A stretch of DNA of 64,000 nucleotides from Vermamoeba vermiformis. Lineage: Eukaryota. The stretch covers positions 248,001-312,000 of the forward strand of contig JBEWZL010000278.1 of NCBI GenBank assembly GCA_045837725.1. Reading direction: 5' to 3'. Under the pieces are notes generated by a model. It worked only from the letters and a program-made list of their open reading frames with translations, did no database searches and was not told the DNA's origin. Shown here in pieces: positions 26,560 through 48,196 of the stretch. Position numbers and translations under genes: made by a program. Position 1 is the stretch's first letter, and each line of letters begins with the position of its first letter.

Positions 26560-26689
26560 TTATCGGTATCGTGACTTCATTCGGACACGAATAGCACTGC
26601 GCAGGTAATGAGCGGCGGATGGGATGAACACATGCGCAACGATGCGTCTATTAGCCACAGTTATTTGTGTTCATAAAAACAATGTTTCT

Positions 26690-29388
26690 TTATTTAGCAA
26701 TGCGCGATGCTTCTTCTGACTCGCGCAGTTCGTGTTCGGAGAGAGGTCTGAATTCGTAGTGACCCATGCCGTCAAACTTGAGCACGCGGTCGTGGTACTT
26801 CCAAACAGATTTGCGATGCGCGACGGTGATGACGGTGATGTTGAGCTGTTTGCAGCGCTGATACAAGAAGGCTTCAATGTCGAGTGACAGCTGTGACGTG
26901 CACTCGTCGAGAATGGCGAACTTGGGGCAGTGATAGAACAGACGCGCCATGGCAATGCGCTGCACATCAGGGTGAGTGACACGTGTCAAACAGCGAGCAG
27001 CAACGTACCTGTTGTTCACCCATGGACAGCACTTCATTCCAGTCGTTCTCTCTGTCCCAGCCCTCGCGCTTGACCAAGTAGCTGAGCTCCACTTCTTCCA
27101 TCAGGGCATTCAGCTTGGGATCGAGCTCTGCTTTCTCTGCTGCTGTGTACACCTGGCACGTGATTGGTCAGTACGTGACACGTGTCAAATAGCGGTGCGT
27201 ACCTTGATGTCGGGATAAATGATCTGATCGCGCAGTGTGCCAATCGTCAAATAGGGCTTTTGCGGGATGTAGAACATGGTGCTGACAGGTGGTCTGGTGA
27301 CAGTGCCGCGCTGAGAAGCGTCAGTGAGCACGCGATATATATACAGCACTTAGTATCGTACCTTGAGCGGCCACAGACCAGACATGATGCGGAACACACT
27401 CGACTTGCCACTGCCGTTCGGACCTGAGATGAGCAGATTGGTGCCTGGCGCCACTTCAAAAGTGAGGTCTGGCACGTGATTGGTTAGTGATTGAGGTCAA
27501 AGATTGACACGTGTCACTTACTGTCCAGCAACAGCACACCATCAGGCGACACCACCGCGACGTCGTGGAATGCAATATGTTCGCCAGTCAATCGCTTGGC
27601 CGTGGGTCCATCGCCAATCACCGTGTCGTCGTCGAGCACATTCAGCGCACTCAGACTCGTGTAGTGCGTCAACACCTCGCGCAGTTCTGACACGCGTGCG
27701 GTGTAGCCAGCGAGCTGCGTGATGTTCTTGTACAGCACAATCAGCTGACCAATCGCGCGTGCCAAGTTGATCAAGATGTGACTGTTGCGCACGTAGTCGC
27801 CTGTGATCTTCGAGGTGTCGAGATTTCCTTGAGATTTCCCTTTGCCAATGCTGCCGAACACAGGACCCGCGACCACAGCGTAGCCAATCATGGTGGCACC
27901 GTACTTGACGAGCCAGCTGTCAATGACGCCGAGCCAGGCCTGTTTGGTGAAGATGTTGCGCATGTGGCGGTAGAGGCGATCAAATGACACGTCCATCACC
28001 TGACGCTCTTTCTTTTGGCCACCAAAAAAGGCAATTTCTTCCGCGTAGTTGATGGCACGGCTGTGCACGTAGCGATAATCACCCTCCAAGCGCTGCTGTT
28101 CGGCAGTGAGGCGCGGGAAGGAGGGCATGATGAGACGCAGAATGAAGGCACTGATCGCGTAGTAGAGGTACATGGTGAAGGGGCCTGTCACGCCCACCAC
28201 TGCCGCTAGCTTGGCACTCAGCAGCACAATGTCCAGCACGGGCTGTGCGGTGTTAGTTCCATGGTGCTAGATACATATATATAGGTGTGTATATATTACC
28301 ACTGCGTACCTTGAATGTCGTGCCGTACACTGTCGAGAATGCTGTCGCGAATTTGTCCGTGTCCTGCGTGATGCGCTGATCGCTGTGTGACAGGTGTCAG
28401 TTAAAGTGTCAAAGTACAGTGCAGCGCGTGACACGTACATGTTGTCAATGTCCGAGCCCATGGATGACGCGCGATAGAACGCCATGCCGTTGAGATACTT
28501 CTCGTGCAAGTCACGTGACAGCCGTTGACGGAAGTTGAGCTGCAAGAGATTGGTGAAGTACTTGAGCGCGCTGTTCACCACTGAGGCCGGCACTGCAAAC
28601 AGCGCCAGTCGCAGCACACCGAGCACAAAGCCGCGCTGATTTCTGCTGACGAGCATGCGCGCATTGCCACCCGCTGCGAGAGGTCAGTTTGAGCACGATA
28701 GAGCGCACTTGTACGTACTGATTTCTGCGATCTTCAGCGTGAGGAATGTGCGCGCGACGAGGGCAATGGTGAGCATGAAGAGCTGAAAGGCCTCGCGCGA
28801 GAATGGACCGGGCACAATGACTTGGATCAGACGGATCAGCCGCACCAAGAATGTCGCATCCACCGCTACTTTGCGACGTCGAGGCACCGATTCAGTAGCA
28901 GCAGGACCTTGTGCTTGTTGAGGACCATTTTGAGTCACGCGCGGGTCCTTGGCCTCGTGACTGGATTTGGTGTAGAGTTCTGCTTGCTTGCGGTCAAACT
29001 CGCGTATTAAGCGCTTGATCTTGCGTGTTGCGAGCCATGTACCGCTGCTGGCGATAGATGCAGCCTATAATAGTATTATTAAGGATTATTCTAGACAGAG
29101 ACGCTATGCTTTGCTTTCACTTTAATTTTGAAGCAGATTTCGTCAAAACTTTATATTAGGGCCTGAATCTGCACCATGTATTATTTGTAATTTATTGTAA
29201 TACCAGCGACATTAATAATAATTGAAATTAACAACCAGAAAATTTCAAAAGCCAGCTGGGATCCAAAGAAAAACCAAAGCATTGCTATGGATTGTGATCG
29301 TATTAATATTGCATATGTATATTACCGATAATAGGACTGCTATCGTCTTTTTTCTTGCAGCGAGGTATTGTTGAATTTGTGTCGACAT
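26690..29388 (-). CDS. Peroxisomal ABC half-transporter, subfamily D (PMP70/ABCD-like)
   Basis: EAA-like motif [23 protein letters not shown], Walker [10 protein letters not shown], signature [17 protein letters not shown] and Walker B ILDECTS. Confidence 0.93.
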
Positions 29389-29687
29389 GTTACAGCATGA
29401 GATCTGTCGCTATATGGAGTTATATAATGACCAATGAAATATATACAAGGCTGGCCTATGAGAAAATAAATACAATCAAATGAATAATGACTGAAAACTT
29501 AGCCGAGGCTCCGTCTGAGTGAAATTTCACCAATCACGTGGGACGGTTACGTCGAACGGCGCAGGGCAGTTGTTTGATTATATTAACACATCAACCTGCT
29601 AGTGAATCAGCACACCTTAATTAATTGGTTTTTAAATACTGACACTGCGACATTGGCTGGATTCACAACACAGATCCACGATCGCGA

Positions 29688-31742
29688 ATGGAGCACAATC
29701 ATTTTACGTTTACAGCTAGTTGGAATCCACCTCCTAAATATAGGGATCGGTACGTCATCTTGAAAATTAATTAACAATTAGTGGCTAAGTCAACAGATAA
29801 ATAATTAATTATTCTGAAAATAATCGCATAATTAGTTGCCGTTAATATTGCTGGCTCTTAATAACACCTGTTATACAGTACTCCACAAGAATACGCCAAT
29901 GATTTGCTGGCATTCTCGCTCAAATACCGCGCCATATTCGAAGGACGCATGATCCGCTTCTTTTTAGACCAAATATGGCAATTAATTCCGCACGAGTGGC
30001 ACGCAGCCCTGGTCGAGTGTCCCTACGAGCACTATTTGGACCTGCATCAGCACGTGCGCGAGGACTGGCCCGAGTCGTTGAAGCAGTTCTTGAATGAGGC
30101 ACGTGACTTGTCCATGCCACGTGACATCGCGTCCGAGCTGCTGATTGACAGGCCAGATTTCAACGAGATGTACGGCATGGACGCATTCGCGACTGGAATG
30201 AATGAAAAGAAGTTGCATGAAGTGGAAATTTTGGCAAAGTTAATTCATGAAGTGAATGACACGTGTCAAATCGAGACTCTCATCGACATTGGTGCTGGCA
30301 AGGGCTACGTGTGCAATGTACTGGAATATTTCTACAACCATCACGTGATTGCTGTCGAGGGCAATGGTATGTCATTAGTCTTGTCATTATTTCTTAATTT
30401 AGTAATTTCCTCATTTAGATTGCCACGCACAACGCGCTGATGCCCGTTCAGCTAAAGTACAGCGACACTTGTATTTGCGACAATTGCAGCAGAAGTACGG
30501 TGAAGGTCCGTGATTGACACGTATCAAGTTCATAGCAGCTATTTGACACCATTCTATTAATAGATGCGGAGAAGGTGCGTGCTGGCATGAAAGAGTTTCA
30601 TGAAAAGCCCAGTCACGTGACAACGTATTTCCTCAAGTACAACGAGACGGACGTGAAAGATTTTGATCACGTGTTCGAACAGAGTTACAAACAGTTCAGT
30701 GAACAGAACGCGTTCAGTGAAACAAACTCTGCACTCACTCCCGCAGCGCGCATTGGACTGATCAGTCTGCACGGTTGCGGAGATTTGAGCTGCACGCTAC
30801 TCGATCTGTTCATGAACTGGTCACGTGCGGAGACTCTGGTGTAAGTATTGCCATATTTGGACATATGTTTTAATCACCCGCTCTGCAGCTGCGTACCGTG
30901 CTGCTTCAACAAGCTCAAAGAACGTAAGTTGATTTCTATAATTAGTGCACAATGTGACACGTGTCAAACGCAGGTCCCGACGGCAGTGTGACAGGCTTCC
31001 CACTGAGTTCAGTGCTGCAAGGGCGTGTCAATTCTGAGCGCACACTTGGTCTGGTCGATTGTGCCACGGTAAGCAGCCCTAACTGATTGCCTAAAATAGC
31101 AACTCACTTCTATATTTGGTAAGGAATCTACGGCGCAATGGGCTCAGGGCAACACACGTGACGTCATTGTGAGACTGGCCACCGCTCAGCACCGCGCCAT
31201 ATTAGGTAAGTCCTACACTGCGCACCTCTCACTTTGACACGTGTCACAGAGAGTGCGTTGCGCGCCTTCATTCCCGACCAATCACTCGTGTTCTGCGTCA
31301 AAAAGACACGTCAAAAGGCACACTTTGCAGACTTCAATCGCTATCTCGCGTACGTGTTCTCGGAACAGAAGCTAAAAATAGCTGTGCAGGTCGACGGCAA
31401 GAACAAGTAAGTGACACGTGTCAAACTGCAGCTCGTACTCATCCACTGTGCAGTCGAGGGCCACTGTTGCCCGAAGAGATTATTCCAAATTGGGCGGAGA
31501 TACAGCCGGAGATTGTAGCCCTGGCCGAGCGACTGCACGTGGAGCACGCACGTGACGACAAAGCAATGCTGGCGTACTGCACGCTGCAAGTGGTGCTGGC
31601 CCCAGTGCTGGAGAGTCTGATCGTGCTCGATCGCTACTTGTACCTCACTGAGCGCGGCGTGCAGTGTCACGTGCTGCCCGTGTTCGATGCGGCCACCTCT
31701 CCGCGAAATCTCGCGATCATTGCGCGCAAGACTCACCAATGA
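29688..31742 (+). CDS. METTL25/RRNAD1-like SAM-dependent methyltransferase
   Basis: GMNEKKLHEV, IDIGAGKGY, SLHGCGDLS, VPCCFNKL, GFPLS and LAPVLESLIVLDRYLYL..PVFD...SPRNLAIIA. Confidence 0.88.
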
Positions 31743-31851
31743 GTTTATTTTCACTGAACGGACTGTAATCTTTTGTACATAAATAGTAATCGCGTCTATT
31801 TTTGGTCCCCCGATAACTCCGTGTAGGACATCGAACTGTGACAACATTGCC

Positions 31852-33466
31852 TTATTTGGTAACTTCGTCCAATTTGGTCAGTGCCTTGTTCACCATCCAG
31901 CCCTGGCACTTGTGCAATATCTGGCGGAATATCTCCACGTGATTGCGACTCAGTGCGGGGTACTTGCTAATTAAGGCAAAGAGGAATGCGGAGAATTTCG
32001 GTGAGGTAGACAGACACGTGACTTGTCTTTGCAACTGTGCCACGAGCATGTCAAACAGCGACGTGTCAAACTCGAGCTTGGAGTTGAGAAAGTGATGCAA
32101 CAGCTGCACGGTGAGCTCACTCCACTGCACGGCACTCGACAGCAGCGTGCTATTTTTAGCGTCAGTTACTCGTCAGTGCTGTCACGTGCTGTTCTTACCT
32201 TAAAAAGGATATATTTTCTTCGGCGGGCAGTGCATCACGTGTAGTGCGCTGAATGATCTCGAATTGAATCGTGCCTAAAATAGCAGTCAGCGTCAATGCC
32301 ACTGCCAAATAAGGCAAGTCATACCGCTGGCAGGGTTGAGGGCGAGTGGCACCAAGACCGCGTCCAAAAATGGTTTGGGATGCAATCTGGCGAGGGAGAT
32401 CAAGAGTGCGAGCAGTGTTCTGCTGGCGGGGAAGTGCAGCTGACTGAGGCGCGGAGTGAGCACGTGATCGACCAGGGCTCTGCACCGCACGTAACTCACA
32501 TCGGACACGAGCACACTGTTCAGCGCACGTGACACGACTTCATCGCTCTGACGCGACAGCTCTAACACCTCACATGCCTTGCCTAATTTGGCAGGTGATG
32601 AAATTTCGCGCAGAATTGACCAATCAGCGCTGTCTTCAGTTTGACACGTGTCTTTCAGCTCTTCTAATCGGGCCATAATGTCAGCGTCGAGCGTGTCATC
32701 TTCGAGTTCAGTCACGTGCATGACAGTGTTGTCAACATCACGTGTCTCGTTCACTGAATTATGTTCATGAATCAGACGGTGCCACTCCACATCCGAGTCA
32801 TCCATCTCCTCATCAATCACCACCGATCCACTCGCTGCGTACTCCTCTAAAGTCACGTGCTCACTAGCGCTCTTATACTCACGCAGCTTGTTGCTCACTG
32901 CGCGATGTCGATCTGCTGCGAGAGTGCGCGCAAGAGTCGCTGGTGTTGTTAGTACTGCTAGAGGACTATGAGTGTCATTACCTTGCGCTGTTGTATCGCA
33001 CCAATGCAGGGCATATAAGCGCAGAGTAGAGGAGACTTGGTCGTTGTAGCGGTAACTCTTGTTGTACAGTGCGCGAGTCAGATCTTGTTCTGTGCGACTC
33101 ATCTGCGACCAACAGCGAGCTAGTTTGGTGATTATGCTCTCTTGTAGCATGAGCGGCAGTGTTGCTAGCTTGGTACTGGGCCTACGTCAAGTGAAGTTAG
33201 ATCCGGTAAATTTCCAAGTATTTTTAAAAATCAACGCGAATTTATTACGGATTATAATGTGCATAGTATTGAAAACCATGTAGTATTAAATGTGCTAAAA
33301 ATAATGCGCAGTGAATTACGTACTTGCCATCGCAGATCACAATGAGCCCGCACTGTTCGATCAGTCGTACAAACTCAGCTGAGTCCCAATCACGCTGTCG
33401 GAGCCATATATAAATACTCTCTATTGTAATATCCATGCTCTCGCTCGTCGAGCACGTGACCTGCAT
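31852..33466 (-). CDS. FANCE: Fanconi anemia group E protein-like (FANCE C-terminal helical domain)
   Basis: C-terminal LSQLHFPASRTLLALL..FLDAVLVPL..GTIQFEII, W.E.....L...L and SPKFSAFLFALISKY match the FANCE C-terminal pattern. The start is 33466 or 33436. Confidence 0.72.
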
Positions 33467-33617
33467 TGGTGTGCAGATCTGAACATTATTTCAAATAACG
33501 CGAGTCAACTGCAAAACACATTGCCAATCACTTAGTGTTGAAGACGCATATATAATATCACTACATGACGTGTGATTATTGATGGCAACCGCATTTTGTT
33601 CTGGGAATGACGAATAA

Positions 33618-35530
33618 ATGGATCCAGATCACTCACAACAAGATAAAAATTCACCGATCGAGGCCTCGCAGAGTGTCAATGAAGTGCGCTTTAATAATCT
33701 ATCGATGCCAATTTATTCTAATATTTTCAGGGTACTCCGTGTCCGATCTGCTTCACCCCGTGCACATCCAGCGGTGACCATCGCTTGAGTTGCTTGCCCT
33801 GCGGTCACATCTACGGCAAGAGGTAACAAACAGTGCGCATATACATGGTACGATACTGACTCGCGCCTAGTTGCATCACCAAGTGGCTGAAAGAAAAGAA
33901 GATGTGCCCGCACTGCAAGAGCAAAGTGAGCAAGGTGACTCAGGTGCTGGCACTCTACGCACCCAATGCACGCGTTGTGGCCGTGGAGAGCGAGAACAGC
34001 GCTCAGGTGCGCATTCGACAGCTGCAAGACGAAGTGAAGGCCATGCGCGAGCAGACCAAGCGGTTGTTGGACGACAAGCACAGCTTGACGCAGCAGATTG
34101 CTTTTCTAAAAAAGGAAACTGTGCCACCCAACCCCGCCAGACAGCCTCAGAATAGCACTGCAGTGACCGCAGCCCTGGTAGATGTCCACAGCACACTGCC
34201 CCTGCACGGTGTGCACGTGGAGCTGTATCACGTGATGCGCGTGCCCAAAGTGCGCTCAGTGGCACAGTGCCAGTCACGTGATGTGCTGTTGATGGCCATT
34301 GAAGAGCCCAAGACTGGTCGCGGAGGGGTGTTGAAGATGAGTCTGCTAGGTGCGTGTACCTATACTAAGACTGGTCACGTGATAGTTAATCTTTGCAACT
34401 ATTCACTTGCAGATCCGAGCAGCACGCAAATCACGTGGTGTCACGACAAGATGATTGGCATGATCAAAGTGCATCCACATCTCCCGCTGTATCTCACGGC
34501 CTCGCAAGATCACACGGTCAAGTGTCACTCGCTGGACTCCAATTTGACACTCAACACCTGGACCTGTCACCTGCCAGGTACGACTATACCATATATAGTT
34601 CTCTATCTCACCGCTGTGCCAGTGTGGTCTGTGGAGTGGGATCTCGATCACGACACGCTGTTCTACGTGGGACTCAGTGACGGCGCGCTGCTCTTGTTTG
34701 ACACCTGTCACACGGGGGCTCCGAGACTCACCGTGACAGCTGCTGGCAAACAGCCACTCAATTGGCTGCACTACATTCGCGCGCACACGCACCCTGCACC
34801 GCACAGTGCCGCACAACCGCGTCACGTGCCAGCGGGATTATTCGGCGCATCGACCAAGTGCTGCTATTTTTGGGACAAGAGTGCGCTCTTGAAGGCCTAT
34901 GTGGTGCCAGTGCCGTTAAAATTAGCCGCCATGCCCGACATTGCGCACGTGGCGTGGGAGGCGAGCACGGCGAGTGTGGTGCTGTCACTTGTCAAGTGCG
35001 CGGAGTGGCCACGTGGCTGTCACGTGATTGCGCAGTTTAGTGGCACGACGCCAGCAGATCTCACCATCCTGCGCACCTATCAGCCGAACTGCGAGCCCAA
35101 GCGACTGAGTCACGTGCTGCAAGTGGCACTGCCGAGTGGTTCAGTGAACGGCGTGGCGCGCAGTGAGCTGTTGATGATCGCGAGTGACGAGGACAAGCGT
35201 CAATTGCTCGTCTATCACGTCAATTCGGGGCGTGATGTGCAGCGCATGGAGTGGCAGAGTGCCAGCGAGCTGTACCACAACAAATACGTCGCGCACACCC
35301 TCGATCTCACTGGTTCAGTGAACAGCGCTGATCTCGAGCACAAAACTGCGCAGGTGAGCAGCAGCACACCTTCCAAATTAGTACTGGTCCGCAACTACGT
35401 GATGCCGAGTCCCGTGGATCTGAGCTACTACAGCGCTAATAATAGCCACACTGAACCCACTGGTCCTTATTTGGTAGCGCTCAGCGATCACTATCTCGCG
35501 GTGTATCGCATCAAATACGACCAAAAATAG
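33618..35530 (+). CDS. RFWD3: RFWD3 (FANCW)-like RING + coiled-coil + WD40 E3 ubiquitin ligase
   Basis: RING CPICFTPCTSSGDHRLSCLPCGHIYGKSCITKWL...CPHC followed by LYA, a coiled coil, and WD motifs LTASQDHTVK and PVWSVEWD..FYVGLSDG. Confidence 0.85.
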
Positions 35531-35582
35531 CACACTCCTCTTGTACGATAGTTGTAAATACACGAATCTATTTATAGCACCA

Positions 35583-37273
35583 CTACGCGTACGAAGCAGG
35601 CGCCAAGAACACCCTGGCCCCTTGCCACTTGAAGGTGAGCACGCCGTCGAATGCCGTTCTGGGCACTCCAGCCTTGGCGTCGTCGATCAGTCCGACCTGG
35701 CGCGAGTAGTCGCTGAGCTCTGATTGGCTGCGGTAGATCAGCTTCACGTCACCAGGGCCACTGATCTCGGCCACACTCGACACCACGCGCGCACGTGCCA
35801 GTGTGGCTTGGAACTCGGGGGTCCAGCGGTCTTTGAGCAAGTAACTCAAGTCCTTGCTGTGCCAGTCCACTGCGCGGTCATTCAGCTTGATCGGCTTCAA
35901 GTGCTTGTCGTAGAACTGGCCGCCACTCGCGCCATTCTCGCCGAACGTGTACGTGCGACTCACCTCGGGGCGAATGCAGTCGCGGTTCTGTCAGCAGTCA
36001 GCTTCGTCATTGCCTAATTTGGAAATACATACGCGACGTTGCGCAGGTTCGCGCAGCCAATCGTCCCAATAGCCCGCAGGCCACTTGTCTTTCAGCTCAT
36101 TCCACAGCTGCTTGCTAAGTACAGAGTGGTCAGTGACACGTGTGACAGGTGTCAAACTGTGACTCACGTCAACATCCAGCCCAGTCCTGGGAAGAAATTG
36201 CTGCGGTACACGGCCTCGCTGTCATCCACCAACTTGCCCAGTCCGTTGTCGTTCCACGCTGTGACACGTGTCAATCAGAGGTGCGCACACACAGTCACAT
36301 TGGAGAGGTACTCACCCGAGATGCAGTAGAGCGATCGATCGGTGAACAAGAGCCACTGCAGCGCGGCAAAGTACGTGAAGAAGTCGGGTGCCACTTCAAT
36401 GTCCTCTTCGAGCAGAATCACCGAGCTGTACTGCAGCGTGTCAAACACGTGACTCAGCGCGAACTTGTAGTGTCCAGCGATCTACCAGGGTCAGCAAGGC
36501 AGACTGCAGTCACGTGACACTTACCTGATAGTACGCGGCTTGATTCTGCGGCACGTGCGCGGGCAGTGTGCGATTGGTGCGCTGCAAGTGAATGAGCGGA
36601 TGTGTCTCGCGCATGCGTGTGATCAGCGCAGTCACTTCGGGCTTTTGATCGTCTTGCGATACGATCACTGGGAAATTCTCCGTGGGCACTTGACTAAATA
36701 AGGAAATGTTATCTTCCTTTGCAGAACTCGGTGACTCGCGTACCTGAAGATCGAATTCAATGCGCGCTCCAAGTACTGTGGCCTATTGTAGGTAAATATG
36801 ACAATTGGAATGGGGTAGCGCGGCGTGGTTTCGATTAGTGGTGCGCGCGTAGTCTCTGGGCTTCCTTTGTTCGCTGCATAGTAAATATAATTAATATATG
36901 AGCATCATTAGTACCACTAAGTGTAACTAGCAATTATTAAATTATTACGCGCAGGAACAATTCAGTTACAAGATTAATACTGACGCGGATGCAGTCCCGT
37001 ACCTCTCGCCACCACCAAGTCCACGGTGAGTCGCTCTACTTTGTGCTCGAGCTCTTCGTATTGTCGCTTCAGCTCTTCGCGTCGCTTGGTCTCAGTTTTG
37101 AGCTCATCCATCAATTTATTCACGCTCTTATTGGACTTGTCGCCACACGCCTCGCCAGTGGAAGGTGCGAATAGGAAGTTAATAGTTAAAAATAATAGTG
37201 CGCCAGCGCCGATCAGAATAAATATTTTCGAGCGCAGCGAAATTGCGCGTCCTCTTTCGTGACGACCAATCAT
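35583..37273 (-). CDS. MGAT1: Alpha-1,3-mannosyl-glycoprotein beta-1,2-GlcNAc transferase I (GT13)
   Basis: Type II TM anchor and coiled stem. Motifs [56 protein letters not shown] and SRTYTFG. Confidence 0.93.
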
Positions 37274-37434
37274 CGTTGCATTCCTATGTACACTAGTGTT
37301 GTAACTGCATGCAATAATGGGTGACGTTGAAGAGCAGTGCGGGGGATTTAATGTCGGGGGCGGGGAACAAATGTCGGGGCTACAGGGAAAGTTGTTGCCC
37401 GCAGTGGTCGTATTATTGTACAATAACAGTAACG

Positions 37435-40400
37435 ATGAGTCAACCTCAGGACAAACCAGTTGATACATCAGCTGCAACTGCTAGTCCTGGCTTGGATGCA
37501 GCAGTCGAGTACTTAGTGCAACAACGACTGTTGCTGACAGCCCTCGAGCTGCATCAAGAACTGCTCGAGCGCGGTGAAGAGAATAAGAGCTTGAAGCAGC
37601 TGTTCACCACTGGCAAGCTGCTCGATGAACTCAATGACAATGCAACCCATCCACTCAATCAGCAACTGGTACGTCGACCAGTCGTGCGCAGTACGAACAG
37701 CTATCAAGAGATGGACTCGCGCGTAGCACTGTTGGAATATGAGCTGCGTCAAGAGCGACAGACCACACAAGCACTGCGACAAGAGCTCTCACTGCTCTGG
37801 AATCGCAAAAAGAAAGAGGATCAAGCTACCGCCTCTGAAGGCGAGGCTGCTTATTCGCAATTAGAAAAGAGAGCACTGTCTTATTTAATCAAAAAGTTTT
37901 TATTGGATCAAGGCTTGAAATTAACCGCGATCAGTTTGACCGAAGAGGTAAGCACGACTAGCTCACTAAAATATTAGCAAAAATATATGCATTGTTTATA
38001 TGTGAATATGCGCATTATCAAACACTGCAGTCGCAAATTGAACGGCGACTACTATTTAATTGAAATAGAAAAAATCGGCTAATTTCAACTTACGCACCTT
38101 CACCATCGCATATTGACCAATCACGTGCATTGTAGCTCGAAGATTCTATGGACACGTGGACGAGTGTCGGACAGATGTTTGGTATCAACACTAAAGAACC
38201 CCCAAGTCTGATGTCGATCTACCGCTACTTCTACAACAGCGGCGAGAACAAATACGAATTCGGTTTCAAGGTACCTGCCCACGCACTGCGCGTGTACTGG
38301 TTGCACAGCTAATAATAGCCCCACAGGACGCACTGGACAAAGCCACGCGCGACAATGCGGCGCTGAAAGAACAACTGCGCGCCAAAGAAGAAGAGCTGCA
38401 GCGCGTGAAGCGTGACAACTTGAACGAGATTGAAGCACTGCACGCACAACTCACGCAACTCGATGAGCCCGTGCAAGCAGTGGTGAAGGGCGACATCATC
38501 TCGCTGGACGAGTTCAAGGCCCGCGTGACGCAGCTGAAGAGTGTGACCTCGCGCGAACAGAGTGGCAGCAGTGCGAGTGGTGCTCAGAGTGACAAGGCGA
38601 GTGTCAAGGACAAGAAAGACAGCAAGCCCAGCGAACACAGCGACAAGGAGGACAGCAAGCCCAGCGAACACAGCGACAAGGACAAGAAGATGCGCGTCAT
38701 CAAGAAGCGCGACTTGACCTCGCTGTTCCCGCGCGAAGAGGTCGGTGATGACACGAGCAAGCGCATCTCCGAACAGGTGACCAAGCTGCGCGTGATGGAA
38801 GAGAACAAAGAGTCGATCATTGACGTGCTGTCCACTGCACTGCCCTACATTGTCAGCGGTGTTATATTGAAGAAGCGCGAAGAGCTGATCCCCGTGCTGT
38901 TGATGGCCATCAGATTCCACCCTGTGGAAGAGAAGCGCACACAGCTCACACAGCTGCTGTTCAATCTCGTCAAGATACCCACCGAACACCAGCGCAAGTC
39001 GATATTGGATGGCTGGGAGTGGCTCGCACACCTGCAAGGCCCCGATCGTGTGGCGCAAGAGCTGTTGCCCTCGTGCTGGGAACAGATCAACAACAAGTAC
39101 GCTGAGCGTCGTGTGCTGGTGGCAGAGTGCGCGGGCAGATTGGGCAATGCAGTCACCGCGGAGATGCGTGCCTCGCTGCTCGTGTCCATCGTCACCTCGC
39201 TGTTGGGCGACACTGAGGCCCCTGTGCGCCGATCAGCCACCGCGAACTTGGCACGTCTGTTGCTGCCACGCCCTGACGACATTGAAGCTGCGCGTGTGGA
39301 CGAGAAGAAGTACAAAGATCTGCGCGACTTGTTGATGAAGACACTGCACGACAGCGACACGGAGGTGAAGAACATTGCGCGGCAAGTGCTCCTGCCCGTG
39401 TTCACGGATTGGGTGGAGCGCGAGGAGTACTTGTTCCCGAAATTCGCCAACTCGCTGCTCGAGGGCATTGGTGCTATTGTCAATGTAAGTACTGGTCACT
39501 GTTTGACACGTGTCACTCACCGTGCCGCAGAGACTTGCAAGCTTCAAGCGTCAAGACAAGAGCAAGCGCATTGAAGCCAAAGACACGCGCGAGCTCGAAC
39601 TGCACTGTCAACTGCTGAGCTACGTGATCAAGCACGGCCACGACTCGGTGATGACCAGCGCACCGTTCTATCGCAACGAAGAGATCGAAGAGCTGCACGA
39701 CACGGAGGTCAAGCTGCCTTCAGTCCCACACTTGGCTGCAGCGAGCAGTGCCGTGACTGCCGCAATCACACCAGCCAATGTCGTGAATGCTGCCGCGAGT
39801 TCTGGCGCGGACTATTTGACCGTGTTCAAGCCCAATGAGCGCCAATTCATTCGCAAGAAGTTTGACGATTTTATTGCCACACTGTACAGCGCTGAAGACA
39901 GTTACAAGACGTGGGGACCATTTGATTGGATGATCAACGATCTGCTCAACAAATTGATGGGCTACGTCATGGCAATTGACACGTGTTATGGTGACGTGGT
40001 CTATCAGCTCACCAATGTTGTCGCCACGCTGTGTGTCACCTTCACACCGGCATTCACTGAACGCGTGGTCAAGTCGAAGATTGAACGCCAGCTCAAACAG
40101 GTCAACACTGAAGAGGGTAAGTAGCCAGGTGTGACACGTGTCAATCAGCGGTGTCTAACGGTGCCACAGAGGACACGGATGTGCGCGAGATGAAGCGCGA
40201 GAGATTGGTGCAGTTCTACTTGGTGGGCGTGCTGTCACACTTGAAGAGCGAGGTGTTGATGGGCTTCTTGAAGGAGCTGTTGATGAACATTGCCCTCGGT
40301 GAGAAGGGCTGGAGCACCAAGAGCATTCAACTGCTGAGCGACAGTGTGGTGATGATCTGTCAGCAGAGCATGGAGAAGAAGGAACAAATTCTCAACATGC

Positions 40401-41250
40401 TGTGGGACCTGGTCGTCAATCCCTCGAGTGAAGTGCGCTTTGTGGTGATCAAAGTGATGCAGGCCATGATCACCATTCTCACGCACAACGAGCTCATGAA
40501 CAGAGTACTGCCCGCACTCGTCACCATGAGCTCCGATCCTGATCGCAAGGTGCGCATGGGCACCATCAAGACATTCACGCACTTGGCCTCCAACACCACC
40601 GACGAGGCCGTGCTTGCCAAGGTCGCCATTCCGCTCGAGAGCTTCTTGAACGACAGCAACTCCAAGACCGTGGTCGAGACACTCAACACACTCGTGCCCA
40701 TCATCCCCAATGTCTCGTCCAAGTTCCGCGACAGTTGTAAGTATCACGTGCTTGTTCGTGTTGCAGACGCGTGACTGACAGGTGTCAAACAGTCATCTTG
40801 AGCACGCTGATCAAGGTCACTGAGAACAACAACAGCAACAAGAAAGAGAGCGAGCGACGTGAAGTGGCCAATGCGCTGTTCGAGGCCTACCGCGCCTTCA
40901 ACGGAGTGCGCATGAACAAAGAGACTACGCAGCAGTTCATTCGCGGCCTCAAAGCCCTGCAGCGCGATGTGGATCTGCTCGGTCAGAATCGCAGTCTGCT
41001 CGGCATGATGGTGTCGGACATGGAGAAGGCACTGCAGTCCGCGAACAGACAAGAGACCGCACAACCTGCCGCGAGCAATCCACTCGGCATCAATCTCAGC
41101 ATGCTGGGCCTCGGTGGTGGCACTGTGACACCTGCCACTCAGACACCGGGCACTGCGGGCACTGCTGGCACACCCAACCCTGCACAGCCCAATGATCCCA
41201 ATGCACACGGCTTCATGGGCAACATGCTGTCGTACTTCAAGATGAATTAG
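37435..41250 (+). CDS. RELCH: RELCH/KIAA1468-like LisH, coiled-coil and HEAT-repeat protein
   Basis: LLLTALELHQELLERG, RVALLEYELR, LEKRALSYLIKKFL..LTAISLTEE, KREELIPVLLMAI, LFNLVKIP, ELLPSCWEQINNKY.ERRVLVAE and RVLPALVTMSSDP. Confidence 0.88.
38618..38683 (+). repeat. 33-bp in-frame tandem duplication (DSKPSEHSDKE/D x2) inside RELCH
   Basis: 38618-38650 and 38651-38683 are identical except for the last base. Confidence 0.95.
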
Positions 41251-41410
41251 TGCAATGTCTTTATTTGGGCATGCGCTACTGAGAGTAAAGCTATTTTTGT
41301 ACATAACTGCGCGTCATCCAGTAATACTGTTCACTGAACGAAGTGTCATCCGCGAGTTCGTGTCAATCCATGACATAGCAATGAGCACGTGATGTGCTAT
41401 AAATAGCTCA

Positions 41411-42567
41411 CTATTCCAAGAAGTTCTTGTACTGTGCAGGTGGGGGTGTCATGTGCTTCGGAACAAACTCCGCGCTGGTGACGCTAATTTTAGGCCGTGA
41501 CAGCAGTTTGGGAGTGACTGGCACTGGTGGCACTGCTGGCACGGGATTTGGTGGCGTGGTGGCACTGGTCTTCGGCTGCACGGGCTTGGGCTTGGCTGCG
41601 TTGTTATTGTTGTTATTTCCTTTTTTGGATCGCTCGCGGCGTTGAGATTTCTTCGGAGCAGTCTCCGTTGCAGAACTCTGACCACCAGCGTGAGGGGTCT
41701 GACCACCGCTCTGTGCGGCATTCTTCTTGAGCACGCGCTTGTACATGTTGCTGCTATTATTAGCACCACTGCTCGGCTCTGCTTTGTGCTCGCCCTTCTC
41801 ACTGCGCGCGTGCTGCTTGCCGCGACGATTGTTCCGCCGCGCATTGCGCTCCGCTTGTCTTTGCCGTTGTTTCTGGGCCTTGGCGCGCAGTTCATCGAGC
41901 AGTGGCGTGGAGGTCGGTGGTGCTGGTGGCATGCTGGTCGCGCGCTTGGTCACGTGCTCCTCTGGAGGCGGTCCCTGAACAAATGCAATGTAATCGGGCT
42001 CGGTGCTGATCGTGTTGAGCAGAGGGTCGCGCGGAGCAGTGGCAGCGAGTTCAACGCGCTGATAGGGCGCCCATTCGAGCTGCGCTTTGTGTTCAATGCC
42101 CTTGCTGTCCACAAATGCGTGGCCGTTGTACATCTGGTGGAACTTGTGCAGCGCATCGAACGAGACAAAGTTGAGGTAGGCACGCGAGGGTATTTCACGC
42201 GTAAGACTGCAGTATATTAATATGGCGTAATTAAGGGACAGTGCTCGTACTCAATGCACGATCAATATGCTGCATTGGAGCTCTTAATAGTAATAAAATG
42301 TGTTGTAATAATAGCGAGCGATTTTTAATAATACCAATTACGAGCTTCTATGATATGATTGCACAATACTTACGTCTTCTTGCCGGGCTGATAATAATAG
42401 AAATTGATCTGCGCGAGATGTGCCTCGATTGTCTTTTTGAAGTCTTCTTCGCTGAGATTGTACGGCAGTTTGCGCACTACTACTTTAGTCTTGCTGCGCG
42501 GTCGAGCATTGCTGTTGGTACTCACAGCACTGGTATTGTGCGCGCTAGTCGTGCTTGTGGTGCTCAT
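41411..42567 (-). CDS. UPF3: Nonsense-mediated decay factor UPF3
   Basis: KVVVRKLPYNLSEEDF, YYYQPGK, PSRAYLNF, YNGHAFVDSKG, LEWAPYQRV and TPLLDEL. Confidence 0.9.
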
Positions 42568-42669
42568 TCTGGGCCGCAGATGTGATTAACTCGCGCGTGC
42601 AGCACCACGACTCATTGGTGGGGCTAGTTATAACTTATAGTAGTATTGCGTTGTAATAATTTGATTATC

Positions 42670-43977
42670 ATGTTTGCTACACGCGCAGTGCTCAACAAAC
42701 TGCGAACAAGCAGATCCCTGCAGCACCATCTGCTCAAAAAGGTTTGCACGCACCCAGCTAAATAATAGCAACCATTATATAATATTCCTGCAATATATCA
42801 GATATTATTTTTGACACTACTGACCGCTGTGTGTCCTCAGGCGCGCAAATCTGACTGGCGCGTGGTGCTGTTCGGCACCGATCAGTTCTCCGTGGCAGTG
42901 GCGGAACAACTCCGAGTGCGCGGGTGTAAGTCACGTGCTCAGCCCTATATTTAGCACTCACCAGTGTACCGCAGCCCAGTCCGAGTCCCCGACGCGTGTG
43001 AGTCTGTCAGTGGTGGTGCCGCAAGAACAGCGCTCAGTCAGCGCAGACCGCAAAGGCACACCTCTCGTGCACCCCTTGCGACACTGGGCACGTGCGCACC
43101 GTGTCAGCGCGTACACCTGGCACGAGGGGGGCGTGACTGAGGCGAGTGACACGTGTCAATTCGTGAACTCCATTGCAGACCTGGTGCTGGTAGCCTCCTT
43201 CGGCATGCTGGTGCCGAGTCACGTGATCAGTGGTGCCACCAGACCCCCGCTCAATGTGCACCCCTCGCTCTTGCCGCACTACTCGGGGGCTGCTCCGATT
43301 CGACGCGCCATGCTCCAGGGTGACACGTTGACAGGTACGCATTGACACCCCATTGACACTCTCTTCTGACATGTCACGTGACAGGCGTGTCAATCATCAC
43401 GCTGCACCCGACCAAATTCGACCAGGGCCTCATTGTCGATCAACTGCCGCTCCCGATCGATCCGTTCACTGAACCGTACCATCACGTGCTCACCAAGTGT
43501 GCGGTGCTCGGTGCAGACATGCTGATCGATCGTGTGTTGCCCAACTACGATGCCTATATTAGGCAAGCGCGACCACAGCCCGCGGGTCAGTACCGCCGCG
43601 CACCGAAGATCAAGCCTGACGAGGGTGTGATCACGTGGCAGTCAATGAATGCTAGACACGTGACCTGTCACTTCAATGCCCTGGGAGACAATCCAGGCGT
43701 GTACTGTCAACTGACAGCACCCCACGTGACACGTGTCAATCTGTTGCAAGTGTCACTCGCTGAAGACTCGCCGTTGACAGCAATCAGTGCCGCACAGGTG
43801 CCAGGTTCCGTGCTGTACGACAAGTCACGTGCTCGTCTGCTCGTCACGTGCGCGGAGAATTCCGTGGTGCAAGTGTCACGTGTGCAACTCGCTGGACGCC
43901 GCGCATTGACAGCTGTAGACTTTGCGAATGGTCAACGAATGGTCAACGGTCAGGTGTATCCCAAGCTGTTTCAGTGA
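42670..43977 (+). CDS. MTFMT: Mitochondrial methionyl-tRNA formyltransferase
   Basis: LFGTDQFS, VASFG, LNVHPSLLPHYSGAAPI, TGVSII..FDQG, APKI and FANG. R-rich N-terminus. Confidence 0.9.
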
Positions 43978-44142
43978 AACTAAAGTCAGTGCACCGCGAC
44001 GATTTAAGGGCCAGGGACGACGAACATCAGTTTTGTTGAAATTTCAAAAACCGCTCGGTTTGTGAATTAAATCAGAATTGCCACAAGTGCAGCACAATAG
44101 CTGTAGATAACTTGCAATAGTATAGCGATACTATATATTCAT

Positions 44143-46298
44143 ATGGCGCAAGTAGAAATTGAACGTCCGATCAGGGTGGACGATCGGAAGATGAGCCAAG
44201 TCCCTCCGCCAGAGTGGTATCCACTGAGCACTGCGCAGCTGTTTGGCGCGCAATTTGATCTGGACGCGTACTGGCACGCCGCGAGTGTGGAGCAACAAGT
44301 GCGCGCAGTGCCGGACATTAAGGTGCTCAGAGAACACTTCAATCGCGAGGGCCGATTGCTCCCTGAACACGTGGCTATTATATTACACGAGGCAGAATTG
44401 TTGTTGAGGTATTTAATTATTTATTTCAATTTTTGAGCCAGATCTGACGGTTAAATTCGGCTCAGAAAAGATGAAACTCTGCTGCAACTCAAGGCCCCCG
44501 TGACCAGTAATCATTTAATACGCGCATATTCAGTACACTGCACTAACACTAATCCTTCGCCCTAGTATTTGGAGACATTCACGGCCAATATTTTGTAAGG
44601 CGCAGCAGATGCACCCAAGTACGCAACTGACCGACGATTGATTACTAGGACCTGGTGAATATATTCAATGCACTCGACACCTTCAACACACTGCCGCACG
44701 CAGCGACGCAGTACCTGTTCCTCGGCGACTACGTGGACCGCGGAGGTTTCGGGCTGGAAGTGGTGCTGCTGCTGCTGGCCCTGAAGATCAACTTTCCTAA
44801 TAAGGTATTTCTGCTGCGCGGCAATCACGAGTGTCGTCTGCTCGCCAAGCACTTCAACTTCTACAAAGGCAAGTCGTGCTGCACTGTATAGCGCTAGTAC
44901 TCATGCCACCACAGAGTTCATGGCCAAATTAGGCAATCAGTGGACTTCAGTGAACGTAGAACTCATGCAAAGCTTGCAACACTTGCGCGCGCAACATTTC
45001 AGTGAACCGCGCGTGTCAATCAGTGACGTGTCAGCCTTCCTGTTCGAGCACGTGATGGTCGCATTTGATTGGCTGGCACTCGCGGCCGTCATCGTCAACC
45101 AGGGCCAGAAATTCTTCGCGTGTCACGGGGGCCTGTCACCACAACTGACACGTGTCACTGACATTCAGCAGTTAAAGGTAACCTTGGTACCAAATAAGGA
45201 ATCGTGGCAATAATTTAACATCACGTGACAGCGGGGTGAAGAGCCTTCCAAAAAAGGAGCGATATGTGACCTGTAAGTGCTGCGGTGGTATATACCTAGC
45301 CTAATATACTCATGTCCATATTAGGATGTGGTCAGATCCGCTCGAAGACAACACGGCCAAGGGGCTGTCAGAGAGTGACATGCGCGAGTGGCTCGAGGTA
45401 GAATTCGTTGAAAATCCGTATCGCGGCTGTGGCCAGGTAGACACTTCTAAATTTGGTAGTCACGTGACTGAACAGGTGTACGACAGGTCTACGGCTATGC
45501 GGCTATAAATAGATTTCTGACCGAGAACGATCTGACCATGATCGTGCGTGCTCACGAAGTCAGTCAGGTAATTCATGAACGGCGATCGATCAGCTGCAAA
45601 GATGTCAGTGTGTAACTCTCATGTGATCTTTGCAGACAGGCTACGAATTTCACTGGCTCGAACAGCAGTCGCAGCGCACTGAGCCCCTCGTCGTGACGCT
45701 GTTCAGGTGAGTGCTAAAAATAACTCGTTCATGAATCGCTGACCCACGTGCAGTGCCCCGCACTATCTGGACATGTTCAAGAACCAAGCAGCTGTGATGC
45801 ACGTGCTCGACCAGGGCTACAAGTTCGCGCAGTTCAAGCACGTGCCTCATCCCTTCACACTGCCCTCGTCCATCAACGCCATTGCGCACACCTTGCCCGA
45901 GGTCACTGAGAAAGGTACGTTCACTGAACTACGTGTGACACTTTGACACTGATCACGTGACAGTGGTGGAGGTGATTGTGACCATTCTGAATCTCATCAC
46001 ACCGAGCGAGGAAGAAGTGCTTGAAGAACAGGATGCCAAGCGTGCCCGTGCACTCAATTTGTTCCGCAGCAAAGTGTTGCAAGTCACGCAGCTCAAGCGC
46101 GCAGTGCAGAGCATTCGTGAGGCGCGCAATCACGAACTGGCCCTCTCTGTGCAGGGCGATGTGGGATTTGAAAAGGCAAAAGAAATTGACGCCAAGAACG
46201 AGATGATTCCTGGGGCACAACCAGCCGCAGTGCCAGAGAAGGACAGCATTCAGTTCAACTCCGCTCTTTCATTTTGGAAGAAAATAGCCAAGAAATAA
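44143..46298 (+). CDS. Calcineurin A-like Ser/Thr phosphatase (PPP family), divergent
   Basis: [39 protein letters not shown] and FSAPHYLD. The C-terminus has a CaM-binding-like helix and the autoinhibitory-like [15 protein letters not shown]. Confidence 0.85.
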
Positions 46299-46369
46299 AT
46301 TGCAAGGTGTAAATAAATGTTGTAGAGCTTGCATAAGGCCCTGGATCTAAACTTCTTTTGCTTTTGAGC

Positions 46370-47016
46370 GGCGGACGTCCTGTCCGCCAAAAATTTTTCA
46401 TCCGTCCGTGGACATTGCGTCCGTCCGAGGTCGCTGCGTCCGCTGATGTTAGTAATTGACCAACTTATACCAAACTCGGCCATTAGCATCAGTGGACCCA
46501 AGAAGCACTACTATTGGCGTCAGGAGGCTTTGGGCTAACCGCCAGAGGCTGAAAATGGCAATGTTCTGCAAAGAACTTAAGTACTAGAACTTTGTTCTAT
46601 TGGCTGCAATACCATTGAAACTTTGGAAACACCTAGACCTATCACTATCTAACAAGAAAATATAAGTAATCATCAAAGATATTGTAGTGGCAGCAATTTG
46701 TAAATTTTCAGCATTAAGTATGAACCCACCCACCAGCACATGTTTGGTACAACACAACTATATGTATTTTATGCAACCCTGAACTTTGGCTACAATACAT
46801 TGTCACCTAGCTATGAAATTTTTTTTGAATCATCCATGCTTTTTTATGTTGTAACTTTGTCCAGTTGGTGGCAAACCTTGTTATAATGAAGGGATATGCT
46901 TAATCATATACATGGCATATAGAAATCTTATTAAAATCTTCATACTATATGATGTATGGTCGGCGGACGCACGGTCCGTGGCGGACGTCCAATTTTTGCC
47001 GGACGGGACGTCCGCC
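46370..47016. mobile_element. MITE-like non-autonomous DNA element
   Basis: 26-bp terminal inverted repeats at 46370-46395 and 46991-47016 (24/26 match), flanked by AGC on both sides (46367-46369 and 47017-47019). No ORF. Confidence 0.55.
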
Positions 47017-47277
47017 AGCCAGTACAAGCTGTTGTCACCATCTATGACACTTGTGCCAGCAAATCTAAGTGTCAGTCTGTTAGTTATGGTGAGAAAAAAA
47101 GAGTGATTCTCCCCTTGAATTTTACCAATGGAGGTCCAGTGTGGCCGGCCAAGCCTTTGTGGCCAGGTATGTATGTATGGTACAAGGCACCAACTGGTGT
47201 GTCTGTACATATGAGGCATTAATATACATATTACTGAAGCATTGAGTGATAACAAACCACTAGTAACTGACATTCAG

Positions 47278-47330
47278 AAAAATAAAAAAATGGCAGACAG
47301 CAGGAATTGAACCTGGGACTGTATGGCTAC
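47278..47330 (-). other. tRNA-derived fragment (B-box/T-arm, 3' TGCCA, oligo-T)
   Basis: The minus strand reads CCAGGTTCAATTCCTGCTGTCTGCCATTTTTTT. No complete cloverleaf can be built. Confidence 0.4.
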
Positions 47331-47925
47331 TCAGAGGAGGTTGTCTTGCTCAATTTGAGCAGGACGTCCAGATTTGGACAGGGAGTCCGGACCTGGACAG
47401 GGCGTCCGCCGTCACTAGGTTCTCATGGAATAAAAGGCTAATAGCACCTAATTGTCGTGGATACCTATATTTCGGATGAGTTTGATGGTTTCCTTGCTGG
47501 CCAAGCTCTAGGGATTGAGCTGAGGAAAGTTCCTCAGTTTTTGAAATCAAGCTCCAAATGGCTCAGGTAACAAAGATTTTGTTATTTTCTTGATAAAGAC
47601 GCTGAAATTACATCCATTAGCCAAAATATCCAACTTTCCAATGTATGGTGATTACAATTCTTTCTCTATCTCCAGTGGCTGGAAGCTGATGTGATGGGAA
47701 GTTCATACCTAGTAGTATCCTATATATGCTCTACCTACTGCAGCAAACAGAATTGAATTTCGTTAATTACTAACTTCAGCGGACGCCCTGTCTGCATCCG
47801 GACGCCTGCCCCAGACGGACACCCTGTCCGCGGACGGACGCCATGTCCCTGGACGGACACCCTGTCTATGGACGGACGTTCCGTCTAATTTGGGCAGGAC
47901 GACCTCCAGATTTTTTCTAAGTCCA

Positions 47926-47970
47926 ATAATAAAAAATCCATGCAGATACCAGGAATTGAACCCAGGGTAA
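47926..47970 (-). other. Second tRNA-derived fragment (B-box/T-arm, oligo-T)
   Basis: The minus strand reads CTGGGTTCAATTCCTGGTATCTGCATGGATTTTTT, similar to the 47278-47330 copy. Confidence 0.4.
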
Positions 47971-48196
47971 CCACACCCCCATACAAACATACCTTAAAAT
48001 TTTGCCATGACACAATCCCAAAGATTGTTTGGAGCAATTTACCACCTGCTGGCAAGTGTTGTAGCCAAAGATCGCTGATGCATAGTATAGTTGTGAGGTA
48101 CCAAAAGACCGTGAACATTTCAGTGCTGCTCAACAACATCTTGGTACGTCACGTGATCGGTGCTGATTGCCAAATTAAGTAGCTGGGAGAGCATTT

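Follow-up and report, generated by a model that had tools for sequence, protein, structure and literature searches.

A 12-bp palindrome, TGACACGTGTCA, and four companion classes of symmetric words crowd the gene bodies of nine consecutive genes in a 64,000-nucleotide stretch of Vermamoeba vermiformis DNA (contig JBEWZL010000278.1, positions 248,001 to 312,000 of the forward strand). This whole stretch is referred to as the window, and positions are counted from its first letter. The words are more frequent than expected, are concentrated in one block, and are retained at orthologous positions in a relative about 73% identical to the window. They are perhaps selected binding sites of dimeric DNA-binding proteins that act inside transcribed regions; we regard this reading as evenly poised between right and wrong.

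The window contains 14 exact copies of TGACACGTGTCA, 13 of them within 26977-45157. A first-pass annotation, made from the letters of the window without database searches, had reached the same numbers and positions by eye. Dinucleotide shuffling predicts 0.01 copies, and none of 100 shuffles reached 14. Markov models predicted 0.54 copies at order 5, 1.5 at order 6, and 5.9 at order 7; because the models were trained on the window itself, they include the sub-words of the palindrome and are conservative. The enrichment claimed in the annotation thus survives even an order-7 model. The hexamer CACGTG occurs 110 times in the window, compared with 24-77 expected (Markov orders 1-4).

All 14 perfect copies have a CACGTG core with dyad symmetry, as the assignment to E-box/G-box elements in the annotation had implied. 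The sole recurrent one-mismatch form is a central C/G change, TGACAGGTGTCA or TGACACCTGTCA, which is found in seven copies (2328, 28388, 34699, 36143, 40776, 56883, and 61916); the copy at 2328 had been missed, and the other six were already listed. The variant centre, CAGGTG or CACCTG, fits the CANNTG pattern of bHLH proteins and breaks the ACGT of bZIP proteins. Among the words of the form TGACANNTGTCA, only the centres CG (14), GG (4), and CC (3) occur; GC and all others are absent. Inverted TGACA..TGTCA half-sites are present in all 21 copies (perfect and variant), and the window has 117 TGACAC/GTGTCA half-sites, with enrichment in the block. No CpG-decay form of the palindrome (CATGTG or CACATG centre) was found in the window, and the methylation mark suggested in the annotation gains no support from this. 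Rfam and tRNA scans of the window gave no matches. Relative to the host transcript, the oriented perfect copies comprise seven forward and five reverse.

Asymmetric G...A flanks accompany 12 of the 14 window copies, and a 14-mer including them was considered as the true unit. It holds in the window and fails in independent copies, because only one of nine unique non-seed copies in related metagenome loci follows the rule (L013 and L004, from other organisms, were left out, and the duplicates L005 and L018 were counted once). The 12-mer rather than the 14-mer is therefore taken as the unit. In a search of the full-text literature, which did not cover supplementary files such as the tables of genome papers, the exact 12-mer appeared only in virology papers, apparently as a primer sequence, nothing relevant was returned for CACGTG palindromes inside protist introns or genes, and no description of either TGACACGTGTCA or such a layout was found.

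The palindrome shares its block with other words. CACGTG words, CC(W)6GG, CTA(W)4TAG, and TTCASTGAA (W, A or T; S, C or G) co-peak at 26.7-46.3 kb, together with GTCACGTG/CACGTGAC (49 copies) and CACGTGAT, often in the form CCAATCACGTG. All five word classes are reverse-complement symmetric, which is a property expected of duplex DNA read by dimeric proteins. The block holds 125 of the 178 words of the five classes in the window and, between 26.9 and 46.3 kb, 79 of the 110 CACGTG hexamers; the word density is about one per 150 bp across 20 kb. The most block-enriched 8-mers are almost all CACGTG, TGACAC, and TTCASTGAA words. The annotation had described a domain of about 19 kb saturated by the palindrome. 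A sharply bounded block of about 20 kb does exist, but it is not specific to the palindrome, because four other word classes peak there. The block and its surroundings, as obtained from word counts, Pfam names, and heuristic gene models, are as follows.

26696..46290: word-rich block of nine consecutive genes, in order (strand in brackets): ABCD transporter (-), Methyltransf_32 (+), unknown (-), RFWD3-like (+), GNT-I (-), HEAT-repeat (+), UPF3 (-), Met-tRNA formyltransferase (+), and PPP phosphatase (+).
29056..29885: divergent-promoter spacer between the ABCD and methyltransferase genes; AT-rich and word-poor, with a single CACGTG and a single CTA(W)4TAG in its 830 nt.
46291..49546: right block boundary, a 3.2-kb word-poor stretch without a convincing open reading frame (ORF).

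The left edge of the block falls between two convergent gene ends at 26556 and 26696. The stretch at the right boundary carries 19-nt tandem repeats at 46401, 47360, and 47780-47878 and a T-run at 49333. Introns contain 16-39 words/kb in the eight scored block genes, compared with 0-7.6 words/kb in all flanking genes (CLPTM1, condensin, OCRL, PPR, coronin, MFAP1, choline kinase, Rpn13, kinase, and beta-adaptin). There is no 12-mer within the gene spans of condensin (CAP-D3), PPR, coronin, or beta-adaptin, which agrees with the scarcity reported earlier for these genes. Intron length is equal inside and outside the block. The GC content is slightly raised across the block; however, base composition was rejected as the cause of the block, because neither the GC content at third codon positions (GC3) nor the GC content of word-masked introns separates word-rich from word-poor genes. 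There is no general excess of palindromes, since 8-mer palindromes other than the ACGT-core and W-rich classes occur at 4.4/kb in the block and 3.4/kb outside.

Gene models were built with a heuristic dynamic-programming finder of spliced genes trained on the long ORFs of the window, and names were assigned via Pfam on in-frame exons. The window introns are about 50 nt long and follow the pattern GTAAGT...CTRAC...YAG. RNA reads from two runs (X21 and X23), which carry the same species label as the best DNA match, were compared with the region 24700-44699. Most of them (X21, 993 of 1181; X23, 1380 of 1629) show 90-95% identity to the window; the species label therefore spans clearly diverged strains or cryptic species. 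Fifteen of the 35 RNA splice joints were inspected. Thirteen agree with model introns, either to the base or to a few bases, and the other two led to corrections of the models (introns 30924-30973 and 31068-31122). The motif-bearing introns are genuinely spliced. Because the RNA depth is uneven and the reads come from a diverged strain, they carry no information on co-expression of the block genes.

Ten of the 14 perfect copies are located in introns of about 50 nt and four in exons, where they are read as DTC (30257 and 43147) or TRV (43727 and 45146) in ORF frames, with Pfam support at 43727. Both the intronic majority and these frames had been recognized in the annotation. The palindrome is fused to splice signals as gtaagTGACACGTGTCA three times and as TGACACGTGTCAcag twice. 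The individual placements of the perfect copies, followed by the centre variants, are listed below.

3600..3611: perfect 12-mer in a CLPTM1 intron (3565-3616 in the model; - strand gene) beyond the block, joined to the 5' splice site as gtaagTGACACGTGTCA.
26977..26988: perfect 12-mer in the middle of ABCD intron 26960-27008; RNA joint 26959>27009 in X21 and X23.
27176..27187: perfect 12-mer in ABCD intron 27153-27202, with the intron end ...CTGACCAATCACGTGCCAG; RNA joint 27150>27201 (cut +2).
27505..27516: perfect 12-mer at the 5' splice site of ABCD intron 27469-27521; RNA joint 27454>27522, with 14 other letters between, in the diverged strain.
30257..30268: perfect 12-mer in a methyltransferase exon, N-D-T-C-Q; identical in the orthologue L003.
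30955..30966: perfect 12-mer in intron 30924-30973, close to its 3' end; RNA joint 30923>30974; identical in L003 and L005 despite flanking indels.
31235..31246: perfect 12-mer at the 3' splice site (TGACACGTGTCAcag) of model intron 31206-31249; identical in L003 and L005, with the remaining intron unalignable.
31412..31423: perfect 12-mer at the 5' splice site of model intron 31407-31453; identical in L003 and L005.
36262..36273: perfect 12-mer at the 3' splice site of a GNT-I intron (- strand); RNA joint 36259>36318.
39504..39515: perfect 12-mer within model intron 39485-39530 of the HEAT gene.
40132..40143: perfect 12-mer within model intron 40117-40169 of the HEAT gene; an RNA loose end at 40169 fits the 3' end.
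43147..43158: perfect 12-mer in an exon of the formyltransferase, S-D-T-C-Q.
43727..43738: perfect 12-mer in the Formyl_trans_C domain, within an exon of the formyltransferase, V-T-R-V-N.
45146..45157: perfect 12-mer in a PPP phosphatase exon, L-T-R-V-T; the gene has a Metallophos domain.
28388..28399: centre variant TGACAGGTGTCA in ABCD intron 28383-28438; RNA joint 28381>28439.
34699..34710: centre variant TGACACCTGTCA in an RFWD3-like exon.
36143..36154: centre variant in GNT-I intron 36115-36167, with a second near-copy adjoining at 36134; RNA joint 36114>36168.
40776..40787: centre variant in HEAT-gene intron 40737-40792, close to its 3' end; RNA joint 40736>40793.
2328..2339: centre variant in a model exon (gene 1693-2593), outside the block.
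56883..56894: centre variant in a protein-kinase exon, outside the block.
61916..61927: centre variant past beta-adaptin in sequence without annotation, outside the block.

The words are unevenly distributed among the compartments of the block. Their density is 1.6 words/kb in the 5' spacers of divergent promoters, 11.5 in 3' spacers, 15.2 in introns, and 5.4 in exons and other transcribed sequence, with some intron coordinates set by hand; the corresponding numbers of 12-mers are 0, 0, 12, and 5. The strongly conserved proteins (ABCD, HEAT, and GNT-I) have 0.7-2.5 words/kb in their exons compared with 16-39 words/kb in their introns, and the less constrained block genes have 9-13 words/kb in exons too. 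Word placement therefore follows the tolerance of the protein. The exons of the block genes contain 49 CACGTG hexamers, compared with 20.6±3.0 after within-gene synonymous shuffling, and none of 300 shuffles reached 49. The other word classes show a similar excess in exons over synonymous shuffles, and no comparable surplus is seen in the block for the control hexamers CAGCTG, GACGTC, and GCGCGC. The model exons contained five 12-mers compared with 0.3 after shuffling, at least one of which (30955) has since proved intronic.

Orthologous sequence was obtained from one metagenome scan with the extended word GTRAGTGACACGTGTCAA, which gave 20 contigs. Two of them, L003 and L005, are 98.7% alike, and both are orthologues of window 28433-33364, with 75-78% identity by blastn and 72.8% over the window bases. 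The palindrome is kept at four of four alignable sites, compared with 8.7% of all 12-mers. TTCASTGAA is kept at four of four sites (14.6% of 9-mers), CACGTG at 15 of 27 (24.9% of 6-mers), CC(W)6GG at five of seven, and CTA(W)4TAG at four of five (12.4% of 10-mers for both). Three of the CC(W)6GG/CTA(W)4TAG words, at 29969, 30554, and 30936, are kept through W-to-W changes. The intron sequence around the words is scrambled and rich in indels in the alignment. Within intron interiors, the identity is 89% in words and 49% outside them (p=3.6e-12); at third codon positions, it is 81% in words and 63% outside (p=0.004). Both words of the ABCD/methyltransferase spacer are lost in the relative. The totals in the window and the relative are nevertheless close: 4 and 4 for the palindrome, 4-6 and 5-6 for CArG, 3-4 and 3-4 for TTCASTGAA, and 21 and 15 for CACGTG.

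This comparison shows that the words are under purifying or stabilising selection at orthologous positions. Single words are gained or lost and the density is held, as would be seen for binding sites under stabilising selection. Retention of the words amid scrambled introns speaks against mutational accident, recent insertion, and a spread that is purely selfish. The annotation had placed the signal at the DNA level on account of the exon frames. That view is strengthened by the occurrence of the words in both orientations, in introns and in exons in different frames, by their excess over synonymous shuffles, and by their conservation at third codon positions.

We propose that TGACACGTGTCA is bound by a sequence-specific dimer, the likeliest kind being a bHLH or bZIP protein of the E-box/G-box type; alternatively, the binder may be a protein that reads two inverted TGACAC half-sites. 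The word would act as double-stranded DNA, and neither as RNA nor as a mobile element. The four partner words, which are E-boxes of the GTCACGTGAC type (often CCAATCACGTG), CC(W)6GG, CTA(W)4TAG, and TTCASTGAA, would make dense heterotypic clusters of sites with TGACACGTGTCA. These putative clusters sit in the introns, 3' regions, and tolerant coding exons of the nine-gene block and spare the AT-rich promoter spacers. Most likely they would set the transcriptional state of their host genes and neighbours, as intragenic modules downstream of the start that are comparable to the signals of intron-mediated enhancement (IME).

The CACGTG core, the dyad symmetry, and the conservation between species are shared with the E-box/G-box sites of bHLH and bZIP proteins, and a plant element of the abscisic acid-responsive (ABRE) type, GACACGTGTC, forms the 10-bp core within the palindrome. 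In the literature, as far as the available parts of the texts go, this 10-mer appears only in plant bZIP/G-box-type motifs and stress contexts, or as primers. The second class, GTCACGTGAC/TCACGTGA, presumably matches the flank preference of the USF/Cbf1/TFE type. However, E-box/G-box sites are usually located in promoters or upstream regions, whereas the words described here fill introns and exons, leave the promoter spacers nearly empty, and tolerate the ACGT-breaking CAGGTG at a density of about one word per 150 bp over 20 kb. In the dimer site of TALE homeodomain proteins, TGACAGCTGTCA, the centre between the half-sites is not read. The annotation had compared the flanks of the palindrome with such sites; the inverted TGACA half-sites are indeed shared by all 21 copies, but the site with a free centre is not favoured, because the centres are restricted to CG, GG, and CC. 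By its sequence, the word may be bound by a bHLH, bZIP, or TALE protein.

CC(W)6GG and CTA(W)4TAG, which we take to be MADS-box sites of the SRF/Mcm1 and MEF2 types, respectively, resemble such sites in their exact pattern and in keeping the C/G anchors while the W positions change. They differ in their intragenic location, and some CTA(W)4TAG words double as a 3' splice site. Words of this class give the 3' splice-site AG of their own intron at 19573-19625, 30495-30563, and 32150-32198. AT-rich intron ends may therefore account for part of this class. An extended CArG-type word, TTGCCTAATTTGG/CCAAATTAGGCAA, occurs five times in the window (for example at 32305, 32582, 35998, and 44925), often about 10 nt past a 5' splice site.

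The closest documented logic is that of IME in plants. According to the available part of the Arabidopsis report, the motif TTNGATYTG works from introns, the 5' untranslated region, and coding exons, independently of splicing, but not upstream of the start, and the effect is confined to about 1 kb from the start (10.1101/269852). The resemblance is one of location only: in both cases the words lie downstream of the transcription start, in introns or exons, and not upstream. The sequences differ, as TTNGATYTG is not palindromic, and a block-wise distribution is not reported in that part of the work.

Several observations weigh against the proposal that the words are binding sites acting on transcription. 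The nine block genes lack a common function, and a shared functional theme is also not evident when the word-rich genes of the window and the metagenome loci are taken together; a classical regulon is thus not evident. The distance between the sites and gene starts reaches several kb. The three ABCD copies, all in the 3' half of the model gene, are 1.5-2.1 kb from its 5' end, and the HEAT-gene copies are 2-3.3 kb from a putative start near 37.4 kb. Words also reach the last introns and the 3' spacers, which is beyond the range of about 1 kb given for IME in the source cited above. The divergent-promoter spacers are almost word-free (1.6/kb), an uncommon pattern for the sites of transcription factors, and a word every 150 bp or so across 20 kb is far beyond the ordinary need of a promoter or enhancer. 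The recurrent CAGGTG centre destroys the ACGT core that bZIP proteins require. Finally, some pairs of copies share 19-33 nt, which is more than a 12-bp site accounts for. Positions 26968-27000 and 39492-39524, in introns of the unrelated ABCD and HEAT genes, are 91% complementary over 33 nt; both are antisense to the host gene and read like CAG|GTGAGT...ACAG round the palindrome. Positions 34696-34714 (RFWD3-like exon) and 36139-36157 (GNT-I intron) are perfectly complementary over 19 nt. The spared promoters, the high density, and the runs of unrelated neighbours sharing the property are unexplained by the binding-site proposal, which leaves room for a regional chromatin-state signal.

Such a signal would be a regional code of selected symmetric words, about one per 150 bp, running through the gene bodies of unrelated neighbours with the promoters excluded. 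By analogy, the words would recruit an architectural or licensing factor that sets the chromatin or transcription state of the block rather than of single genes, and we consider this unlikely. Anti-silencing, insulation, condensin or cohesin loading, and elongation-coupled control are conceivable, if unlikely, forms of the block state. The block is contiguous, its nine genes are functionally unrelated, and its edges coincide with gene boundaries. Several word classes co-localise in it, filling gene bodies and avoiding promoters, and it adjoins a non-coding stretch with repeats. Word-rich blocks elsewhere also span at least two adjacent genes (MnmE and Vta1 in L015, and two genes each in L002 and L010). 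Intron DNA that protects from silencing is known: in C. elegans, according to the available part of the report, phased A/T tracts (PATC) in introns are thought to keep genes active in a repressive setting (PMC4947018). Like PATC, as described there, the present words are a DNA-level feature in the introns of a subset of genes with a regional distribution; unlike the A/T tracts, they are discrete GC-containing palindromes that are non-periodic and occur in exons too. A code of this kind would stand as a eukaryotic and sequence-specific equivalent of PATC or of the clustered motifs by which dosage-compensation complexes are recruited. Against it, the words resemble ordinary transcription-factor sites more than structural DNA, and the block structure has been seen in one window and a few short contigs only. 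The spacing is not periodic either; no nucleosome-like or 10-bp periodicity was detected in the block, where the gaps are clustered (coefficient of variation 1.53) with only a weak bump at 120-160 bp. The nucleosome mark suggested in the annotation is not upheld by this spacing.

If the words are protein-binding sites, as we favour, the block is a very clear natural case of regulatory information inside genes. The sites would be strong enough to bend codon choice, would overlap splice signals in 50-nt introns with little spare room, and would represent a property that one gene block has and its neighbour lacks. Should the words mark chromatin blocks instead, they would be a new kind of sequence-encoded domain signal. 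The block is a testable system for the constraint of DNA binding on coding sequence, for regulation from transcribed DNA, and for multi-gene domains in small eukaryotic genomes. In this lineage, the words can also aid annotation, because word-rich introns have a recognisable signature.

A chromosomal element is a further candidate. CDEI/Cbf1 and Mcm1 are found at yeast centromeres and origins, and fission yeast has factor-dependent recombination hotspots. A cluster of CACGTG-binding and MADS-type sites could accordingly mark a replication origin, a centromere-like element, or a hotspot, which we hold to be improbable. The dense clustering over one region and the slightly higher GC content across the block would suit it. 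However, several other contigs of the lineage have similar word-rich blocks, a number too high for an element that is unique, even though that sample was chosen for the word, and the block genes are spliced and expressed. Moreover, hotspot motifs tend to erode, whereas the words are conserved, and neither the GC3 nor the masked intron GC distinguishes the block from the right flank.

The palindrome could also propagate itself, or be favoured by biased gene conversion or repair, without benefit to the cell. HIP1 (GCGATCGC) of cyanobacteria is a hyper-abundant short palindrome that is distributed genome-wide in coding and non-coding DNA and conserved beyond codon needs. The annotation had suggested a comparable self-accumulation. 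The present word is likewise found in coding and non-coding DNA, in several frames and beyond codon expectation; the 19-33 nt common to pairs in unrelated genes could reflect ectopic conversion, and there is a strong flank preference, in this window only. Unlike HIP1, however, the palindrome is confined to gene blocks, with 13 of 14 copies in one 18-kb block and none or one in flanking genes (as judged from this window and short contigs only), and it has four companion words. Its copies are at orthologous positions in the relative, and no new palindromes have appeared in about 5 kb. Four unrelated word classes share its distribution and conservation, which a single conversion bias would not yield, and a general palindrome excess is absent. 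Self-accumulation of this kind has, in our judgement, quite a low probability.

An element acting in RNA is, in our view, very improbable. Such an element would control splicing, intron retention, or back-splicing through hairpins of the self-complementary word or through pairing from one intron to another. Two copies that share a transcript are always complementary to each other, and the TGAC part can mimic the CTRAC branch site. The intronic majority, the copies fused to splice sites (gtaagTGACACGTGTCA and TGACACGTGTCAcag), and the preference for transcribed DNA over promoter spacers also fit. However, the palindrome-bearing introns fold barely better than shuffles (mean z -0.74, n=12), which is about the trivial yield of a 12-nt palindrome. 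The symmetry of all five classes and the free variation of the W positions in the CArG-type words fit recognition of duplex DNA. Orientation bias is absent, and the introns of flanking genes splice without these words. All 15 inspected joints are ordinary skips with no back-joint among them, and 20 further joints were uninspected.

A mobile origin, in which the joined terminal repeats of miniature inverted-repeat transposable elements (MITEs) or introners left the palindrome and the element may have made the introns, is largely refuted: the mini-intron look that the G...A orientation gives (GTRAG-TGACACGTGTCA-AWCAG, even on the non-transcribed strand) and the 33-nt pair that is 91% alike speak for it, but the 45-nt flanks of the 14 copies are otherwise unrelated to one another, terminal repeats and target duplications are lacking, four copies lie within conserved coding sequence, all four alignable copies are orthologous in L003 and L005, a strain diverged by 5-10% splices the introns at identical places, the flank pattern is not reproduced in independent copies, and introns within and beyond the block do not differ in length. 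When 26-47 kb was searched for repeats, the only families were made of the word plus a few bases. The ordinary transposon family with shared flanks, which the annotation had named as the finding that would overturn its view, was likewise rejected on the unshared flanks, the lack of a longer repeat family, and the orthologous copies.

Other contigs of the lineage have 2-6 kb blocks rich in all word classes beside word-poor genes. Among the metagenome loci, MnmE, Vta1, a carboxyltransferase, and unknowns are word-rich, and a proteasomal ATPase, RPN7, and an ABC ATPase are word-poor. The metagenome sample was chosen for the word and therefore shows only that the word is not limited to the block of the window. 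L002 was considered as an orthologue of the beta-adaptin side and rejected, because there was no tblastn match. No further diverged orthologue pairs were found among the metagenome loci, the other matches being 99-100% duplicates.

Some minor features of the words and their surroundings were also observed. In the ABCD/methyltransferase spacer, a block of about 29 nt at 29107-29140 is kept in the relative and the remaining spacer is scrambled; it may be a core promoter or a start-site element. Two ABCD introns (27153-27172 and 27469-27488) have an identical 19-20 nt end, CTRACCAATCACGTGCCAG, comprising a branch site, CCAAT, an E-box, and the 3' splice site. The word CAATCACGTG occurs eight times in the window. 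In the metagenome sample, L013:1-660 is a 36-nt minisatellite of about 18 units, each with TGACACGTGTCA or a CpG-decay form (TGACATGTGTCA and TGACACGCGTCA); this contig is probably from an unrelated organism caught by the pattern. Several short metagenome contig matches end exactly at word copies, and these are read as other word copies elsewhere rather than as rearrangements. L007:324-469 and L010:4509-4658 have 154 nt in common at 84%, and the two contigs are otherwise unrelated.

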